A stretch of 62,504 nt of DNA, filler included, from Basidiobolus ranarum (lineage: Eukaryota), in the NCBI GenBank assembly GCA_040143965.1. It is 39 parts of 39 records of this genome, joined end to end, with 100 filler letters (N's around TTAATTAATTAA, not from the genome) between each part and the next. Parts side by side here need not be neighbours in the genome. Positions count along the whole stretch, not along the records: positions 3,222 to 4,731 come from JASJQH010004965.1; 38 more parts are not named here. One strand, 5' to 3'. The notes beneath the pieces are model-generated. The model had not been told where the DNA came from. It did not search any database and saw only the letters and a program-made list of their open reading frames with translations. Shown piece after piece: positions 3,531-62,116 of the stretch (position 1 is the stretch's first letter; the number at the start of each line of letters is the position of its first letter). The position numbers and the translations under genes were made by a program.

Positions 3531-3717
3531 ATCTGTTTTCAATTGGAGCAATTGAAAAGAAACATTATGATGTCAAATCAGCCAAGGAAAAGCAACCATA
3601 TACCAATCAAAGGACTTGATAGTACCAACTGGAACAAATACTGGGAATCTATATTGCCTGGATATTGCACTAACAACTGAGACTGTTTGTAACTTTGCAA
3701 CAATTACTTCTGGAAAC

Positions 3718-3998
3718 TGTTGAAATTATTGAGGGAGAAATATTGGTCTGGCCAGATTTGAACCTGGGACCTCCTTCACTCTAGCAAGGTGCTCTAACAA
3801 CTGAGCTACCAGTCCTTGTATGCTATGCCTACATTGCTAGGGAACCTTAACCTAGTCTGTCAATGTTTTGCAATTTGGCATTTCAGCTTTACAAGCAACT
3901 GATTGGCCTTGGACTTTGTGTTCAAATGCAGTCACCTTACTCCATATTTTCCTCTTTGGGAATTACTGCTTGTACCACAAGTCACCAGACTTTCAACA
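3718..3998. mobile_element. Complete 281-bp solo LTR containing a tRNA-like module
   Basis: TGTTGAAA...TTTCAACA termini; 5-bp TSD GAAAC at 3713-3717 and 3999-4003; interrupts copia GAG-pre-integrase sequence. Confidence 0.9.
3744..3815 (-). tRNA. tRNA-like sequence within LTR (nominal anticodon AGA; probably pseudo-tRNA)
   Basis: A box TAGCTCAGT, B box GGTTCAAATC; one base deleted relative to other copies. Confidence 0.6.
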
Positions 3999-4731
3999 GA
4001 AACTTGATGACTTGGCATCAGCACTTGGGGCATCTAAACTACAATAGTGTTAAACTATTATATAAAAATAGCATATATACTGGAATGGATCTTGAGCCCT
4101 CAGATATCACTAAATGTGAAAGCTGTATTCAAGGGAAATTCACCTGAAAACCATTTCCAAAAGAAGGAGCTAACAAAGCCAAAGATTTATTGGATATTAT
4201 TCATACAGACTTATGTGGCCCATTGCAAACACTGACACCAAGTAAGTGACAATATTTACTCTTCTTTATTGATGATAAATCTGACTTCATAGTTTCATAT
4301 CTTCTGATGAGCAAAGGAGAAGTGTTTCAATATTTCAAGATATATGAAGCAATGGTCACTACTATAACAGAAAGAAAAATCAAATACCTACAAAGTGATA
4401 ATGGAACTGAATTTAGCAATGAAGCCACGACTAGCTTTTGTCAAGAAAAGAGAATTCATCAGCAATTTACTATTCCAAATAGTGCAGAACAAAATGGAGT
4501 TGCAGAAAGGATGAATAGGACTTTAGTAGAGAAAGCACATACAATGCTGATTGATTCAGATTTGCCTAAGACCTATTGGGGTGAAGCTATTTTAACAGCT
4601 ACATATCTCCAAAATAGAAGTCCAACACATAGCAACCATGACTCTAAAACTCCTATTGAAATCTGGACTGGAAACAAGCCTAATCTGAATCACCTCAGAA
4701 TTTTTGGATCAATAGTATATGCTCATATTCC
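3999..4731 (+). pseudogene. Ty1/copia GAG-pre-integrase and integrase (rve) fragment
   Basis: WHQHLGHLN...CESCIQGK; LQSDNGTEF; EQNGVAERMNRTL. Confidence 0.92.
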
Positions 4732-5400: not shown

Positions 5401-5414
5401 GAGTGCAAGCTTGA

Positions 5415-5745
5415 GGCTCATAACCTGTTAAAGTATTTAGGAGCCTATTGGAAGTGGTTTGGAGAATTAGAGAAATTGGAGGGTTTCACTTGTAAATTTA
5501 TTGAGTAAAAAGCTTACATTTATAGTTTTGTCAAGATGTAAACAGACTAACTTGTAGAATGCGTTAAGTAAGGTTCCCGGAACATGTGTGCAAAGTTTAG
5601 GGCTTGTTTGAAAAATCTACACATCTGAGAACTCCTAAGTGAATTGCAATTGAGAATAATGGATAATATCTTAGTGAAATATAAGATAACTAAGTACTAA
5701 GCAATATATGACAATATAAGTGCTTAGGCAATGCTAATTTCAACA
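5415..5745 (-). mobile_element. Copia LTR family A (5426-5745) plus PBS GGTTATGAGCC (5415-5425)
   Basis: TGTTGAAATTAGCATTGC...CTTTAACA; matches 45283-45642. Confidence 0.85.
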
Positions 5746-9291: not shown

Positions 9292-9560
9292 TGTTGAAAG
9301 TCTGGTGACTTGTGGTACAAGCAGTAATTCCCAAAGAGGAAAATATGGGGTGTGGTGGCTGCATCTGAACACAAAGTCTAAGGCCAATCAGTTGCTTGTA
9401 AAGCTGAAATGCCAAAGTACCATACATTGACAGACTAGGTTAAGGTTTGCTAGCAATATAGGCATAGCATACAAGGACTGGTAGCTCAGTGGTTAGAGCA
9501 CCTTGCTAGAGTGAAGGAGGTCCCAGGTTCAATTCCTGGCCAGACCAATATTTCTCCCTA
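9292..9560. mobile_element. tRNA-containing LTR, second copy (opposite orientation, cut by gap)
   Basis: Reverse complement of 3718-3998; begins TGTTGAAAG and interrupts the copia KGYRL region. Confidence 0.88.
9475..9547 (+). tRNA. 73-nt tRNA-like sequence in LTR (nominal anticodon AGA, short variable loop)
   Basis: GGACTGG/CCAGACC acceptor (one mismatch), GCTC/GAGC D stem, CCTTG-CTAGAGT-GAAGG anticodon arm, CCAGG-TTCAATT-CCTGG T arm. Confidence 0.7.
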
Positions 9561-11269: not shown

Positions 11270-11380
11270 AGATATTCCTATTTAGAATATAGGGGCTATA
11301 GATACATTGCTTTCTGTTTCTGATATATGTATCATAACTAAAGTTAACTATGATGTTGAATAAAGATTAATTATCCAACA
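11270..11380 (-). repeat. LTR family E fragment
   Basis: Reverse complement of 61789 onward; also at 39979 and 61006. Confidence 0.75.
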
Positions 11381-11769
11381 ATAATATTACTCACAATAAA
11401 ATATTCCAGTATTGAATTTAGTTTCCACTTTAGCATGCAAACCATGTTTAGTTAATATCAATCCAAATAGGTTAACTTTTGAGGATAGGATCAGAATACT
11501 CTATTCCATCATGTACATATTCACAAAAGGAAATACTGGTCATCATACCAAATTATTCATAGATTTTCATGAGGATTTATTTAAAGACAGATTGCTTTTT
11601 ACTGATTGGCAATTGTTCATACATGTCACTGATGACATTATCACAGTTCCTATTTCATTATGCAAGTGATGTGCACATCAATATCAGATTGCAATTTTGT
11701 GTCTGCAGAGAATGGATTGCAGACTCATAAAATTCCTTCACATGTATTCTCTGCTAGACATTGGAAACA

Positions 11770-12543
11770 TTGGGAGGAGGATAGATCCTCACCTAGATAT
11801 GAGCATAGACACCATAATATTGAGTCTGAAGATAGATCATGAGAACCCAACAGAAGGCTTCAGGATGCTCAACTGGAAAATCAAGGTCACAACAGTTCCT
11901 CATGCAGACATGGGAGAAGACATTGTGGTTCTAAATCTGAAGACTGATCCCCACCCAGACACTGGAGAAGGCACTGTGGCATTGAATTAGAGGGTAGGCA
12001 TGAAGAAAGATCCCCATGCAGAAATGGTAGAAGACATCAAGACATCAAGCCTGAAGGCAGTTTTGCTTGAAGATGTAGGAGAAGACAGAGAGATCATCAA
12101 CCTGAATCCCTACCAAGACACAGGAGAAGACACTAGGACACTGGACTAGAAGACAAACATGAAGTGAGTTCCCCATGCAGATACAAGAGAAGACATCAAG
12201 ACACTGAGCCTGAAGGTACATTTGCCCCTGGATATGGGAGAAGGCAATGAGATTGTAAACCTGAAAACAGGTCCACACACAGACATGGGAGAGGACATCA
12301 AGGTCCTGGACCTGAAGTCAGATCCCCACCAAGACACAGGAGAAGACATTGGGATGCTGGAGTAGAAGAAGAACATGAAGAGAAATCCCCATGCAGACAC
12401 AAGAGAAGACATCAAAATACTAAGCCTAAAGGAAAATTTGCCCCTAGATATGGGAGAAGGTATCAAGATTGTAGACCTGAAGACAGGTCCCCACACAGAC
12501 ATGGGAGAAGACATTGAGATCCTGGACCTTAAGACAGATCCCC
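11770..12543 (+). repeat. Degenerate 51/63-bp tandem repeat with a 216-bp higher-order unit; decayed Arg/His-rich ORF
   Basis: Recurrent GATCCCCA..AGACA.GGGAGAAGACAT; units at ~12115 and ~12331 are 216 bp apart. Confidence 0.75.
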
Positions 12544-12778
12544 TATTGAAGTTATTTAGGGAGACATATTGGTCTGGCCAGGATTTGAACCTGGGGCCTC
12601 CTTCACTCTAGCAAGGTGCTCTAACCACTGAGCTACCAGTCCTTGTATGCTATGCCTATATTCCTAGGGAACCTTAACCTAGTCTGTCAATGTATGGTAC
12701 TTTGGCATTTCAGCTATACAAGCAACTGATTGGCCTTAGACTTTGTGTTCAGATGCAGTCACCATACTCCATATTTTC
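12544..12778. mobile_element. tRNA-containing LTR, third copy (tRNA-like 12570-12642, minus strand)
   Basis: Near-identical to 3718-3950. Confidence 0.88.
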
Positions 12779-27348: not shown

Positions 27349-27680
27349 ATCCTTTCATGTGGTTGGTGGGTATTCCAAGCACGGATTTACTTACTGTCGC
27401 TCGCTTGATGGCTACCAAGATGTTCGTTAATGAATTCGCAGCATTTGCCGAACTGGCCAGATTAACCACGTCAGGTGTACTTCAGGAGCGAACCGCATCT
27501 TTGGGCATTTATTGCCTCTGTGGATTTGCCAATTTCGGATCCATTGGTATTCAAATTGGCGCCTTGGGAGCCATGGCACCTTCTCGCAAAAAGGATCTTG
27601 CTGAGTTGGCCTTTTCTGCTATGCTGTGCGGTACCATGTCTACTTTGATGAGTGCAACTATTGCTGGTATGCTGCTTTAA
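27349..27680 (+). CDS. Concentrative nucleoside transporter (CNT/SLC28), C-terminal fragment
   Basis: KMFVNEFAAF...YCLCGFANFGSIGIQIGALGAMAPSR. Confidence 0.93.
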
Positions 27681-28934: not shown

Positions 28935-30460
28935 NNNNNNNNNNNNNNNNNNNNGCTAGATGTTGACCTTGGTTATTCCAGTACCAATGGTAGTATATCA
29001 GAAGTTAAAGAAGAAGAAGATGTTTTTGTAACAGACTCTTTGTTATTAGCAGACATTAGTCCACTCATGTCACTTACTGTGAAGGAAGCAGCTTTGATTA
29101 TTGAGGAGCGGAGAGTTCAATCCAATCTTAGCAACCAGGTGTTTGTTGGTTTTCTTACACTTTTACCACAGTTGATTGGCAACTGCTGCTTGCCACTGAC
29201 CTGGTACAAGTTGAAAACACTTGTCAATTGTACAACTTATAATCCTTCATTAATTAAGCTACCTTCATGTCCAAATGGTCATTTGGCTTTCACCGGTGAT
29301 CTGAAAAACATGAAGTCACGTACTGTTTGCACACAAATGGCAATCACTGAATCAGGTAAATATTGTTCATATTCAGCTTACATATTGTTGATTCCCTATC
29401 TGAGAGTTTTGATGAAAACACCCAAATATAGATCATTGATCCAATACCAAAGTACTCACCATAAAACTGATGGTATTACCAACATACCTGATGGATATCA
29501 CTACCAGAATCTGAAAAGTCAAGGTTTCTTTGAGAACATGTATGATCATGCATTTACATTGGCTCTGGATGGTTTCTCACTAAACAAATATACCATTGGA
29601 AAGGCTTGCTGGCCAATTATTTCAATTAACTTAAATGTTCCTCCTTCTGTATGGTATAAGAGTCATAATATTTTGATACTATCCATCATATCTGGACCTA
29701 AATCACCAGTGCTTATAGATAGCTTCTTGGAGCCTTTGATTGTGGAATTTGAATGGTTATCTAATGGGGTTCAGATGGGTGAATATTTTATTAAAGCTAA
29801 TATCATTGTATGTATTGGTGACACTCCTGCCATCAGTAAACTTGGAGGTTTTTGCGGGCACAATGCACTATCTTGCTGTAGATTTTGTCAAATCAATGGA
29901 GTTTACTCTAACAGGCATATGCATTACTACTATCCAAATACAACACTAAACTTCATGATTTTACCATTGAGAGCCCGGTCTGATTACAATATGATCACTG
30001 ATATCAATTCACCAAATAGTCAGTCTAACATCAAACTAGGTATTAGCCGTTAACCTAAGATTATATTACTAAAGGCAATCAGCTGGAGCCAGAGCTTCCC
30101 ATCCGGCACTATGCACTTACTATTCATCAGCATTCCAAGACTACTTACTCAGCTATATAGTGGAAAATTCAATATGAATGAGCCATTTGAGATAGGATCA
30201 AAGTTTGAATCAATTAGGAAAATGCTTGAAAACATCAAGATACCATAATATTTTACCAGGATTCCCATCAATATCCACTTGTCTAGGCATTCATTCAAAT
30301 GCAAAGACCAGAATTATTGGATTTGTATATATTCAAGTGGAATTTTGCAAAGATTTATGCCTGAGAAGTGTTGGCAACATTGGGAGTTGTCCTTGTGGAT
30401 TTCGATATTTTCAACAGGTACCTTAGTAGAGCTGAAGTTTTTTCAAATTAAACATTTATG
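28935..30460 (+). pseudogene. CMC/CACTA (Tnp2/Transposase_21-like) transposase, 337-aa open stretch then stops
   Basis: LALDGF...WPIISINLNVPPS..Y...NILILSIISGPKSP..IDSFLEPLIVE...GDTPAISKLGGFCGHNALSCCRFC. Confidence 0.88.
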
Positions 30461-38584: not shown

Positions 38585-38788
38585 TAACCACTGAGCTACC
38601 AGTCCTTGTATGCTATGCCTATATTGCTAGGGAACCTTAACCTAGTCTGTCAATGTATGGTACTTTGGCATTTCAGCTATACAAGCAACTGATTGTCTTT
38701 AGACTTTGTGTTCAGATGCAGTCACCATACTCCATATTTTCCTCTTTGGGAATTACTGCTTGTACTACAAGTCACCAGACTTTCAACA
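38585..38788. mobile_element. tRNA-containing LTR, fourth copy (partial)
   Basis: Matches 3795-3998; ends TTTCAACA. Confidence 0.88.
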
Positions 38789-39883: not shown

Positions 39884-40188
39884 TGTTGAAGTTTATTGTC
39901 TTTATCATATTTGTTATCTCTATCTTTATACACCTAACTATTTCATATATCACATATAAGTTTGTTAACATTACTTAGTGTTGGATAATTAATCTTTATT
40001 CAACATCATAGTTAACTTTAGTTATGATACATATATCAGAAACAGAAAGCAACGTATCTATAGCCCCTATATTCTAAATAGGAATATCNNNNNNNNNNNN
40101 NNNNNNNNNNNNNNNNNNNNNNNNNNNNNNNNTTAATTAATTAANNNNNNNNNNNNNNNNNNNNNNNNNNNNNNNNNNNNNNNNNNNN

Positions 40189-45282: not shown

Positions 45283-45642
45283 TGTTGAAATTAGCATTGC
45301 ATAAACACCTATATAGTAAAATATAACTTTGTACTTAGTTATCTTATAACTCATTAAGATATTATCAATTATTCTCAATTGGAATTTACTTGGAATATTT
45401 TTACCAACTTAGGAGTTCTCAGATATATAGATTCTTCAAACTTGTGCTAGAAGCCCCAAACTGTGCACACATGTTCCTGGGACCTTCCTTATCATATTCT
45501 ACACATTAGTTTGCTTACATTGTGACAAAACTATAAATGTCAACTTTCTACTCAATTAATCAATAAGTAAAAAACACCAATTCCACTAATTCTCCGACCC
45601 ACTTCCAACAGGCTCCCAAATACTTTAACAGGTTATGAGCCC
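45283..45642 (+). mobile_element. Copia 5' LTR-A (45283-45630) plus PBS GGTTATGAGCCC
   Basis: TG...CA termini; PBS of the half-tRNAiMet (Ty5/Drosophila copia) type. Confidence 0.88.
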
Positions 45643-49802: not shown

Positions 49803-51150
49803 ATATAGAAAAGTACAAGGCTAGACTAGTAGCCAAAGGATATTCCCAAACACCAGGAATAAATTATACAGAAACTTTTGCTCTTGTAGCAAAGTTTAAT
49901 TCAATTAGATTGATTTTAGCAATTTTAGCTACATTTTGGTTTATTATATATCAAATGAACATTAAAGCTGCTGTTTTGAATGGTGAGCTTGCTGAGGAGA
50001 TCTATATGGACCAGTCAGATGGATTTGTGGACCTAAAAAACCCTAAAAAAGTTTCCAGACTCTGCAAAAACACTCTATGGCTTAAAATAATCTCCAAGAG
50101 CTTGAAAAAGCAAGATAGATGCTTTTTTGGAAACATTCAAATTTCAAAAGAGTAATGCTGACTATAGTATCTACTTCAGGCCAGATAAGACAAACCCAGC
50201 TTTATTAGCCTTATATGTAGATGACCTTATTATAGCAACCAATGACTTGAAGACTTTGGAGAAAACCAAATCCTGCTTATCTGCCAAATTCAAAATGACT
50301 GATCTTGGTGAACTGATGTATTATCTTGGAATCCAAATTAAGATAGATAGGACTACCACAACCATAACTTTAAACCAGTCTAAGTATATCCTGGATATAC
50401 TAAAGAGGTTTAAAATGGAAGAATGTAATCTAGTATCTACCCCACTGGAGACAAATCTTAACTTGACCAAAAATGGCTCAAATCAGACATTTTTGGATTC
50501 AAATGAAAGCCAGAAATTTCCTTAACAATCTATGGTTGGTAGTTTGATGTATATCATTGTTGGAACATGGCCAGATATTACATATTCTGTGGGAATTATG
50601 TGCCAATATCTTCAAAATTATGGATCTGATCAAATCATGGTAGTTAAGCAGAATTTACAGATATTTGAAAGCTACTGTGGATCTGTGCTTAAAATACACA
50701 TATTCTGGATCAAACTTTGATCTGATGAGGTATTCAGATGCAAATTGAGGAAGAGATTTTGAAGACAGAACATCTACAACAGGATACTTATTTCTTTGTT
50801 GTAATGGAGCTATTTCTTGGAATTCAAAGAAACAACCTACCATAGCCCTTTCAACAATAGAAGCTGAATATATGGCTGCCTGTGAAGCAACAAAAGAAGC
50901 AATATGGTTAAGAAAATTCTTAACAGATTTGGGTTGTTCACAAAATTCACCGACTACAATATTTCAAGATAATCAAGGTTGTATCAAATTAGCTAAAAAT
51001 CCCACATTTCATAATAGAAGCAAACATATAGATATTAAGCATCACTTCATTAGAGAGACTATAGAGAATAAGTTTATTGACTTTACCTATTGTTCTACAG
51101 AAAACATGATTGCTGATATATTAACCAAACCATTAGCTAGACAGAAATTT
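49803..51150 (+). pseudogene. Ty1/copia RT-RNase H
   Basis: [38 protein letters not shown]. Confidence 0.93.
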
Positions 51151-51245
51151 GAGAAAATTTCAACATTTCCCAGGATCTAAAATTCTCATAATAAGTTATT
51201 TGTTAGATAATGAGATAATTGTAGGAAGTATTTTTTGACAAATGT

Positions 51246-51303
51246 TACTCTGGCCAGGAACTGTACCTAGGACCCCTCAACTCTAGCAAGATACTCTAGC
51301 CAC
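51246..51303 (-). tRNA. Diverged partial tRNA-like module in a different flank (possible second LTR from 51201)
   Basis: GTGGCTAGAGTATCTTGCTAGAGTTGAGGGGTCCTAGGTACAGTTCCTGGCCAGAG aligns to 9489-9545. Confidence 0.55.
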
Positions 51304-58111: not shown

Positions 58112-59306
58112 TCAAAGTAACATGCCAGCAATGGTAGCACTCATCAAGGTAGACATAGTACCGCACAACATGGCAGAGAATGCAAGCTCAGCAAGATCCT
58201 TTTTACGAGAGGGTGCCATAGCTCCCAAGGCACCAATTTGAATACCAATAGATCCAAAATTAGCGAATCCACAGAGACAATAAATCCCCAAAGACGCAGT
58301 TCTTTCCTGAAGTACTCCTGAGGTGGTTAATCTAGCTAGTTCTGCGAAGGCTGCGAACTCATTAACGAACATCTTAGTGGCCATCAAACGAGCGACAGTA
58401 AGTAAATCCGTGTTTGGAATACCCACTAACCACATGAAAGGATAGAACAAATAACCAACAATAAGTTCAAGTGTAAGGGAATCTATGTTGAAGAAGTTTC
58501 CTATCCAAGTAAGGAATGAATTGACCAAGGCTAAAAGTGAAATAAATGATATAACAGTAGCAAGAATCAATAAAGCCAATTCTATGCCTTGTGCGGCTCC
58601 GTTAGAGGCAGCATGGAGAAAGTTGGCCTCCTTGTCTTCACTCTCGGGAATTCGGACCTCACCCTTGGTGACTGGCTCACCAGTTTCCGGGTAACGAATC
58701 TTGGATATGGCTAGACCACAAGGAACTGACATCACACAAGAAGTAATCAATGTTTGTGCATCCACCTTCATTGAAATAAATGCAACTAAAACAGAGCCTG
58801 AAATGGTAGCAAATCCTGAGGTCATGGCAGAGTGAAGTTCACTACGGGTCATAGTTGCTAAAAATGGAAGGACAAGCAACGAGGATTCGCCCATGCCGAC
58901 GAAAGGAGAGGCAGCAGCAACAACAGACTCAGCTCCACTAGTACCCATAAGTCTAACCATTAGCCAAGCGAATTTACGGACAATCCATTGCATACCACCA
59001 AGATAGTACACAACCTTCACAATGGCAGCGAAGAATATAACCGCAGGTAAGACAGTGAAGACAAAAATACCGATATCGGCGATATCATCACTTGTTACAA
59101 ATGCCAAGCCTGATTTGGAGAAATGGAGCAGTGTGGAGCACATATTTGATAACCAGCTGAAAATGTCGTATCCGACAGATGTCTTGAGAATAAATAAGCC
59201 AAGGAGGAATTGTAATAAAACCCCAACAACAACTGTTCTCCAGGGAATATTTTTGCGATTGTCGGATGTAGCATATAGTACCACAATAAATACAACGAGA
59301 CCAAAG
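58112..59306 (-). CDS. Concentrative nucleoside transporter (CNT/SLC28), 5'-truncated
   Basis: 390-aa ORF: IPWRTVVVG; SGAESVVAAASPFVG; MTSGFATISGS; CGFANFGS. Confidence 0.95.
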
Positions 59307-61005: not shown

Positions 61006-61788
61006 ATTCCTATTTAGAATATAGGGGCTATAGATACGTTGCTTTCTGTTTCTGATATATGTATCATAACTAAAGTTAACTATGATGTTGAATAAAGATT
61101 AATTATCCAACAGTTACCTACTTAGAGGTTCTTGCTAAAGTATTTGGGAGTCTGTTGGAAGTGGTTTGGAGAATTAGAGAAATTGGTGGTTTTCACTTAT
61201 TGAGTAGAAAGTGGGCATTTATTCTTTTGTCATGATGTAAACAAACTAATGTGTTGAGTGTGTTATGGAAGGCCCCAGGAACATGTGTGTAAAGTTTGGG
61301 GCTTCTAGCACAAGTTTGAAAAATCTATATTTCCAAGAACTTCTAAGTTGGTAAACATTTTCTGAGTAAATTCCCTATGAGAACAATGGGTAATATCTTA
61401 GCTCAATATAGGATAACCAAATACTAAGCTATATATGCCTATATAGGTATTTAAGCAATGCCAAATTTTGTTGAAATCAGTATCCTTTAATAGTGTAAAT
61501 AAAACTATGATGACAGATTTCTTGGGTTGACACATCTAAGATGCTATGTATCTTAACAAAATTTGCATACATACTTGTAGGAACTTCCTTGATACATTCT
61601 ACATGTTTGTTTGCTTACCTCTTGTCAAAACTATAGATGTCAACTTCCTCCTCAATAAATCAATAAGTGAAAACTGTTGAAATCAGCATCACCTAAACAC
61701 CTATATAGTCATATATGGCTTAGTATTTAGTTATCCTATATTGAGCTAAGATATTACCCATTATTCTCAATTGGAATTTACTTAGAAT
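61006..61788. repeat. Stack of nested LTR-A and LTR-E fragments
   Basis: Multiple TGTTG starts with homology to 45283-45630 and 39979. Confidence 0.75.
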
Positions 61789-62116
61789 TGTTGGATAATT
61801 AATCCTTATTCAATATCTTAGTTAACTTTAGTTTTGAAACATATATCAGAAACACAAAGCAACATATCTATAGCCCTTATATTCTAAATAGGAATATCTC
61901 TATATCTATATAACAAGTATGTCTTATTACCCCCACTTATCTATTATATATTATTATACAAACTTCTGAATATCTCAAACATTTGATTTACTTTTCTACT
62001 GTATAAGTCACCCCATATTCTTAAGAATAAAGTAACTATAAACACACTATCATAAGTTGCTTCTAATATACAAAGTCTACTCCCATTATGTCAAGATCCT
62101 CCAACATGGTAGCAGC
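61789..62116 (+). mobile_element. Copia 5' LTR-E (61789-62106) plus PBS TGGTAGCAGC
   Basis: TGTTGGA...TCCAACA; TGG-starting PBS followed by gag. Confidence 0.82.

Follow-up and report, generated by a model that had tools for sequence, protein, structure and literature searches.

A solo LTR with a built-in tRNA-derived module, probably of the Helenus kind, in a Basidiobolus-like fungus

The LTR insertion at 3718-3998 and its further copies

At positions 3718 to 3998 of the DNA analysed here, a complete LTR, which we call LTR-T, interrupts a copia reading frame and carries within it a module derived from a tRNA. The window, by which we mean the whole stretch of 62,504 nucleotides, is not one locus, being made up of 39 contigs of 1499-1511 bp that are ordered by length and separated by spacers of the form N44-TTAATTAATTAA-N44; by arithmetic, 58,704 bases (58.7 kb) of it are real sequence. 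Comparison between the pieces of the window showed repeats common to nearly all of them, and for this reason the material has the look of a fragmented assembly's repeat fraction. Judged from its sequence, the host is a Basidiobolus-like zoopagomycete fungus, in line with the fungal origin assumed in the sequence-only reading. One of the pieces also holds an unbroken 397-aa ORF encoding a concentrative nucleoside transporter; its best matches, at 92% identity, are proteins of Basidiobolus meristosporus, and the next best are in other Zoopagomycota. The host is, however, distinct from the B. meristosporus strain that has been sequenced. The features at the insertion are as follows.

3713..3717, no strand: left copy of the TSD, GAAAC, 5 bp (flank comparison and excision test)
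3718..3998, plus strand: LTR-T copy 1, complete solo LTR of 281 bp, TGTTGAAA...TTTCAACA, with the module antisense on the given strand
3744..3815, minus strand: tRNA-derived module of copy 1, 72 nt, anticodon AGA, short variable arm (ARAGORN; Rfam, 46.1 bits; our own model, 100 bits)
3999..4003, no strand: right copy of the TSD, GAAAC (flank comparison and excision test)

Copy 1 has TG...CA ends, 8-bp perfect inverted termini and a 5-bp TSD, and its insertion site is a copia gag/integrase reading frame. When the LTR and one GAAAC were excised in a script, a single open copia frame resulted (...TSGNLMTWHQHLGHLNYNSV...), and the copia reference protein P0166 (aa 391-678) aligned in one piece across the excision junction. 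Since excision restores the copia frame, the 281 bp, including the tRNA part, were inserted as one unit, and the sequence-only reading of this locus as a copia-like TG...CA solo LTR with a GAAAC TSD is upheld. No A-rich or simple-repeat tail is present on copy 1, and no separate duplication flanks the module. A protein-level search with a 49-aa pseudo-ORF reaching the end of LTR-T gave no candidates, and public metagenome contigs yielded 0 exact matches to either a 21-nt pattern from the LTR-T body or a 26-nt pattern from the module.

Searches with blastn and nhmmer found three more copies, 93-94% identical to copy 1, with blastn limits of 9292-9559, 12546-12778 and 38585-38788, each of which is cut by a contig end; the TSD is accordingly seen in the one complete copy (1/1), the other three of the four being truncated.

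9292..9560, minus strand: LTR-T copy 2 (LTR positions 15-281), cut by a contig end; its TTTCAACA end adjoins a copia integrase frame
9475..9547, plus strand: tRNA-derived module of copy 2, 73 nt (ARAGORN; Rfam, 57.8 bits; our own model)
12544..12778, plus strand: LTR-T copy 3 (LTR positions 1-234), terminus mutated to TATTGAAG, cut by a contig end (blastn, nhmmer)
12570..12642, minus strand: tRNA-derived module of copy 3, 73 nt (ARAGORN; Rfam, 58.6 bits; our own model)
38585..38788, plus strand: LTR-T copy 4 (LTR positions 78-281), cut at the contig start, with only the last 21 nt of the module

As the window consists of joined, unlinked contigs, the four copies in 62 kb come from four short contigs that are separate from one another, one copy on each. 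Copies 1 and 2 sit at about aa 417 and about aa 697 of the reference, in two different copia elements that have no other nucleotide similarity to each other, and copy 3 is inserted in a 216/51-bp minisatellite. Copy 4 has a flank that finds no match elsewhere in the window, so that of the proposal that all copies are inserted in other repeats, three of four are borne out (copies 1 and 2 in copia, copy 3 in the minisatellite) and the fourth is not. The sequence before copy 3 was considered as a PBS or PPT and rejected, as it is a unit of the minisatellite.

The tRNA-derived module

ARAGORN called a tRNA of 72-73 nt, labelled 'Ser AGA', in each of the three full modules (3/3), and the Rfam tRNA scores of 46.1, 57.8 and 58.6 bits compare with a gathering score of 29, in agreement with the cloverleaf with boxes A and B, some 26 bp from one end, that had been recognized from the sequence alone. 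Box A (TAGCTCAGTGG) and box B (GGTTCAAATCC) were read off the Rfam alignments and are intact in all three full modules, lying at about 3797-3808 and about 3754-3764, respectively, in copy 1, whose module also has a 1-base deletion in the T arm. We take these motifs to be boxes A and B on the basis of the usual consensus forms. Genuine tRNA-Ser belongs to class II, with a long variable arm and stems that pair throughout, whereas the variable region of the module is 5 nt long, and the Rfam alignments place the non-standard pairs A3/A70 and G31/G39 in all three full modules. Given the short variable arm and these two mismatches, the module is, on sequence criteria, a tRNA-derived pseudo-gene and no working tRNA-Ser.

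The module of copy 1 lies 183 nt from one end of LTR-T and 26 nt from the other. Copies 1 (3718 to 3744) and 3 (12544 to 12570) both show a spacing of 26 nt between the 3' end of the module and the LTR-T terminus, which is fixed in every copy where that terminus is visible. The notion of four copies with the module at one position is to this extent sustained, with four copies present and the same 26 nt in two of them, but only copy 1 is complete, and copy 4 keeps no more than 21 nt of the module.

A covariance model was built from the three full modules and run over the whole window with filters off. Apart from the three full copies, the only place where it found the module was a diverged relative, T2, that is described below; the other five matches listed had E values of 0.48-7.9. 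No free-standing, SINE-like module was found with this model in the 58.7 kb of real sequence. Matches to the Rfam family 'Plastid-ycf2' opposite the modules scored 27-32 bits, with a gathering score of 65.7, and were rejected as the antisense of the tRNA shape. After the module, no T-run terminator was seen. The tRNA-sense strand of LTR-T holds no T4 run, which is not significant, about 0.8 runs being expected by chance. We lean slightly towards a module that is, or once was, active with Pol III.

If the module were retained for a function, lower variation than in the remainder of the LTR might be seen, and a comparison of this sort, for the A and B boxes, had been proposed with the sequence-only reading. 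Among copies 1-3, 4 of the 73 module columns vary and 15 of the 136 body columns do (Fisher p = 0.22), and in pairwise comparison these copies are 97% identical over the module and 90-95% over the body. The last 47 nt of LTR-T are 98-100% identical in pairs among copies 1, 2 and 4. The variation is indeed lower in the module, but as a non-significant trend in the sequences and no proof of selection.

Resident copia LTRs, the T2 stretch and module orientation

Two LTR families of copia elements resident in the window, X and Y, were available for comparison with LTR-T, and a further contig (piece 32) carries T2 behind a copia pol.

45283..45630, plus strand: copia LTR X, 348 bp (TGTTGAAATTAGC...ACTTTAACA), followed by the PBS and then gag
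45631-45642, plus strand: PBS GGTTATGAGCCC after LTR X, with gag next
49805..51180, plus strand: copia pol (RT and the end of RNase H) with frameshifts, piece 32, aligned to P0170 aa 908-1355
51220..51303, plus strand: T2, diverged relative of LTR-T, with the terminus-like TGTAGGAAG, then 26 nt, then the module; contig-cut (LTR-T positions 4-84, nhmmer E 4.7e-8)
51246..51303, minus strand: degenerate tRNA-derived module of T2 (our own model, 22 bits, E 7.5e-4)

LTR X is also present on another piece, behind the end of pol and after a GAGAGAGAG tract, and LTR Y starts with TGTTGAAG right after the purine-rich GAGTGGGAG behind pol. The termini of LTR-T, TGTTGAAATTA... and ...ACTTTCAACA, resemble those of these PPT- or PBS-adjoining LTRs. 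In global alignments of LTR-T with X and Y the scores were not significant (z 1.6 and 2.2), with no similarity outside the termini. A motif scan located TATAAA in both X and Y and AATAAA in Y, and neither motif in LTR-T. The PBS GGTTATGAGCCC of the resident copia appears to be of the anticodon-loop type, and we take it to be complementary to tRNA-iMet. With up to 2 mismatches allowed it had 4 matches, where 2.7 are expected, none of them adjoining LTR-T, and the meaningful ones are only the two beside the LTR X copies. The 5-bp TSD, together with termini like those of copia LTRs that adjoin a PPT or PBS, supports, at the level of sequence, the view that LTR-T behaves as a copia-type solo LTR. 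Because its termini match copia LTRs and because the module is never free in the window, the module is best read as part of the LTR and not as a SINE; the same conclusion had been reached before, and the lack of a free module in 58.7 kb, of a tail and of a separate duplication agrees with it.

T2 is regarded as a diverged relative of LTR-T by virtue of the nhmmer alignment, and blastn gave 78% identity to the LTR-T module region over 51237-51298. In its module the anticodon loop is unchanged and box B has decayed to GGTACAGTTCC. No paired LTRs, internal region, PBS or PPT were found beside the four LTR-T copies and T2, of which three copies and T2 are contig-cut.

With the module in sense orientation, the tRNA +1 would lie 98 nt before the end of LTR-T, and the TATAAA of LTR X lies at the same distance. 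This is the layout of a normal LTR and, with the lack of a T4 run on that strand, favours sense. Comparison of the termini with X and Y gave identity at 9-13 of the 20 terminal bases either way, and body alignments to X and Y did not discriminate (z -0.4 to 1.2). The only orientation clue among the LTR-T relatives is the T2 contig, and it points to antisense: the T2 terminus lies 39 nt after the stop codon of the copia pol (51180), with the module antisense to pol. Taken at face value, T2 may be an autonomous copia's 3' LTR whose module sits in antisense at the 5' edge of U3. A module sense to the element, as the Helenus model needs, seems to us to have slightly less than an even chance.

Comparison with Helenus and alternative explanations

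Elements of this kind have been described under the name Helenus, for TRIMs with tRNA-derived sequence in their LTRs (Kojima 2024, Biology 13:119, PMC10886601). According to the available part of that paper, they comprise 113 families in rust fungi (Pucciniales) and a few in Agaricomycetes, and are also found in animals and Selaginella; the fungal ones have a 5-bp TSD, are mobilised by copia, and in many families are found only as solo LTRs (PMC10886601). The total length is 311-1263 bp, consisting of two LTRs of 120-323 bp each and a short non-coding interior with PBS and PPT, and tRNA predictors label them Ser-AGA, Thr-AGT or Sup-CTA, with the anticodon at odds with the isotype (PMC10886601). 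Helenus is grouped with Cassandra (5S) and Ajax as TRIMp3, and its tRNA part was proposed, without experiment, as the Pol III promoter of the element (PMC10886601). The claim in the sequence-only reading that no fungal tRNA-in-LTR family was known therefore fails, Helenus (TRIMp3) having been published in 2024. The same reading had allowed for the family being already described, and here the answer is divided: the kind is described, as Helenus, but the LTR-T family and its host lineage are not. The available text of PMC10886601 makes no mention of Zoopagomycota, Mucoromycota or Basidiobolus. That study took its seeds from Repbase and widened the screen no further than relatives of the seed genomes, and so this absence is no tested negative. 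In the literature on tRNA-in-LTR elements in early-diverging fungi we found no report beyond Kojima 2024, and the accessible portion of the Entomophthora genome paper does not mention 'SINE', 'Copia' or 'solo'. The tRNA-in-LTR kind is thus already described, and what is new is the LTR-T family and the Zoopagomycota host lineage.

LTR-T is like Helenus in that its LTR, too, contains sequence of tRNA origin with boxes A and B, in that it has the 5-bp TSD, the copia-type partners and the occurrence as a solo LTR in common with the fungal families, and in that its 281 bp fall within the range of 120-323 bp and its Ser-AGA call misfits the isotype. It differs in its host, a Basidiobolus-like zoopagomycete and not a member of the Pucciniales or Agaricomycetes, in having no paired LTRs, PBS or PPT beside it, the comparison being with the published description of Helenus, and in the hint from one contig, that of T2, that the module may be antisense and attached to an autonomous copia. 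The plant TRIM Cassandra, as summarised in PMC10886601, also places a small-RNA gene with an internal Pol III promoter inside an LTR; it differs in carrying 5S, in being found in plants and in having a known Pol III start and terminator in the 5S part with an 18-bp R (PMC10886601), whereas no terminator is visible in LTR-T. Ordinary Ty1/copia solo LTRs have the TG...CA ends, the short inverted terminal repeat, the 5-bp TSD and the X/Y-like termini in common with LTR-T, but not the full tRNA-like cloverleaf, and LTR-T is without TATAAA and AATAAA. To tRNA-derived SINEs (SINE2) it is similar in its module with boxes A and B and its high copy number, and different in that the module is not 5'-terminal, that no tail and no free copies are seen and that the TSD and ends are of the LTR/integrase type.

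Considering these comparisons, we judge it likely from the sequence that LTR-T is an LTR of the Helenus kind, the tRNA-derived module being an integral part of it, and the segment 3718-3998 is probably the solo LTR of a Ty1/copia-dependent family of Helenus (TRIMp3) architecture, with a tRNA pseudo-gene built in. It can be envisioned that a copia integrase would insert such an element and that LTR-LTR recombination would then leave the solo LTR. The module could bind TFIIIC and TFIIIB and so act as an internal Pol III promoter. Pol III transcription, a TFIIIC boundary and a primer or decoy are the roles put forward in the sequence-only reading, each as a candidate. Under the Helenus model, the module in the 5' LTR would be where Pol III starts, 98 nt short of the LTR end; transcription would continue through the PBS, the short interior and the PPT into the 3' LTR, and the RNA would be reverse-transcribed and integrated in trans by copia proteins.

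The alternative that survives best, a possibility that we hold as tentative, is that the tRNA-carrying LTR belongs to an autonomous copia or is descended from one. Its module would be antisense and 26 nt in from the 5' edge of U3, and LTR-T would be a derivative of that lineage with a short LTR. An antisense module would not drive the element's own RNA; it may instead be an outward-firing Pol III unit or a TFIIIC site, which might serve as a boundary, give rise to antisense RNA or act as a beacon for integration. The argument comes from piece 32, where the plus-strand copia pol ends at 51180, TGTAGGAAG follows 39 nt on and the module, antisense, comes after a further 26 nt. LTRs X and Y, in two further copia copies, begin about 30 nt past the point where the pol alignment stops, with a purine tract in front, which puts T2 approximately where a 3' LTR would be expected, and we estimate that an unrelated insertion would fall within about 20 nt of that boundary by chance in about 0.4% of cases per insertion. 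The basis for this is one contig-cut, degenerate T2 stretch, and the tract before its terminus (AGATAATGAGATAAT) is a poor PPT beside GAGAGAGAG and GAGTGGGAG. The closest pol relative (piece 18, 87% identity) has LTR X instead. A motif resembling an LTR start, TGTT..., lies 19 nt upstream of the T2 terminus, so that T2 could be nested in the LTR that belongs to this copia, inserted within its first bases. LTR-T also has neither the TATAAA nor the AATAAA seen in LTRs X and/or Y. To our knowledge, there is no published autonomous precedent for a tRNA-in-LTR copia. The case is made in Kojima 2024 that autonomous partners have to rely on Pol II (PMC10886601, as far as its available text goes). A more specific version of the alternative, in which an autonomous Ty1/copia lineage of an early-diverging fungus plants a Pol III/TFIIIC unit at the insertion border by means of its antisense module, with LTR-T as an abundant short-LTR offshoot, is rather unlikely in our view. 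Such a unit would face outward and, unlike the modules of Cassandra or Helenus, would not promote the element's transcription; it could act, for example, as a chromatin barrier, yield antisense RNA or attract further Pol III-targeted copia integration.

The Helenus-type reading has also to be weighed against a neutral passenger, in which a tRNA gene, a tRNA cDNA or the head of a SINE was inserted once in an ancestral LTR and copied along with it, with no role of its own. The excess conservation of the module is not significant, T2, the older copy, has a decayed box B, the module is not followed by a terminator and two stem mismatches are common to all full copies, each of which would be consistent with a passenger. 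Boxes A and B are nevertheless intact in three of three full modules, where the identity is 97% as against 90-95% in the body, and the module with its 26-nt spacing has been kept in the T2 lineage, which is only 78% identical. Dozens of Helenus families, moreover, retain boxes A and B (PMC10886601, in the part available). On balance, we think a mere passenger unlikely.

Still less can be said for an element that is not an LTR at all, whether a SINE of tRNA origin or a MITE whose inverted ends are 8 bp long. The perfect 8-bp inverted termini, the fact that all copies seen are single units and the lack of any internal region would fit such an element. The tRNA part, though, is 183 nt and 26 nt from the ends and is no 5' head, there is no tail, and the combination of TG...CA, a 5-bp TSD and termini like those of PBS/PPT-adjoining copia LTRs fits a copia integrase. 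Few DNA transposon superfamilies are known to give 5-bp TSDs, and none was linked here to the LTR-T termini, which leaves this reading very improbable. The last alternative, a genuine host tRNA gene beside a Pol III-targeted insertion and outside the mobile unit, would recall the copia- and gypsy-type elements of yeasts and amoebae that target tRNA genes, according to the available parts of the published accounts, but we set it aside as having next to no probability, since in copy 1 the module lies inside the limits set by the TSD and the restored copia frame, the module has the same flanks in four unrelated contexts, and a Ser anticodon with a short variable arm makes no working tRNA.

For a probable element of the Helenus kind, the orientation of the module is the one point that could lift the finding above a new host record. 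Predictors of tRNAs will count such LTRs as 'tRNA-Ser(AGA)' and thereby inflate tRNA counts in large, repeat-rich genomes, as documented for rusts in the available text of PMC10886601. If LTR-T is confirmed genome-wide, tRNA-in-LTR elements (Helenus/TRIMp3) would extend from Basidiomycota to Zoopagomycota, and this wider host range would support either an old origin or repeated independent births of the design in fungi.

Contig order and spacers

The 39 contigs of the window are ordered by size, from 1511 down to 1499 bp, and are joined by spacers of the form N44-TTAATTAATTAA-N44. These contigs are unlinked; distances between pieces and the neighbourhoods they appear to form are meaningless.

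Repeats and LTR-associated sites

Several further sites and repeats lie in the window, among them the primer-binding site (PBS) of LTR X, the resident copia LTR that precedes gag, and the minisatellite into which copy 3 of LTR-T, the LTR family with the tRNA-derived module, breaks:

45631-45642, PBS of LTR X, GGTTATGAGCCC
5414-5425 (-), second LTR X PBS site, one mismatch to GGTTATGAGCCC
12106-12543, minisatellite with a 216-bp period and ~51-bp subunits
39979-40088, 11270-11384, 61006-61112 and 61786-61895, terminus-like repeat that starts TGTTGGATAATTAATC
28956-30050 (+), Transposase_21 (tnp2)/DUF1258 protein-coding repeat

The repeat starting with TGTTGGATAATTAATC, which may be either an LTR or the TIR of a transposon, cuts off a copy of LTR Y, the second resident copia LTR family, and its two copies in piece 39 (61006-61112 and 61786-61895) are inverted and ~110 bp long. 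The commonest repeat by spread in the window is the Transposase_21/DUF1258 repeat, a DNA transposon family, CACTA- or KDZ-like, with relatives on at least five pieces (15, 20, 21, 26 and 28).

Open reading frames

Two further ORFs lie on the minus strand:

58115-59305 (-), concentrative nucleoside transporter ORF, 397 aa, uninterrupted but truncated at the contig end
37925-38482 (-), ORF whose similarity to the NAGPA (phosphodiester glycosidase) domain is weak, at E 2.2e-7

The transporter ORF has 92% identity to proteins of Basidiobolus meristosporus, with ~10 paralogues from that species among the matches listed, and the C-terminal 330 nt recur on another piece (27349-27678, 88% identical), where they adjoin copia debris. 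The NAGPA-like ORF is possibly a piece of a host gene.
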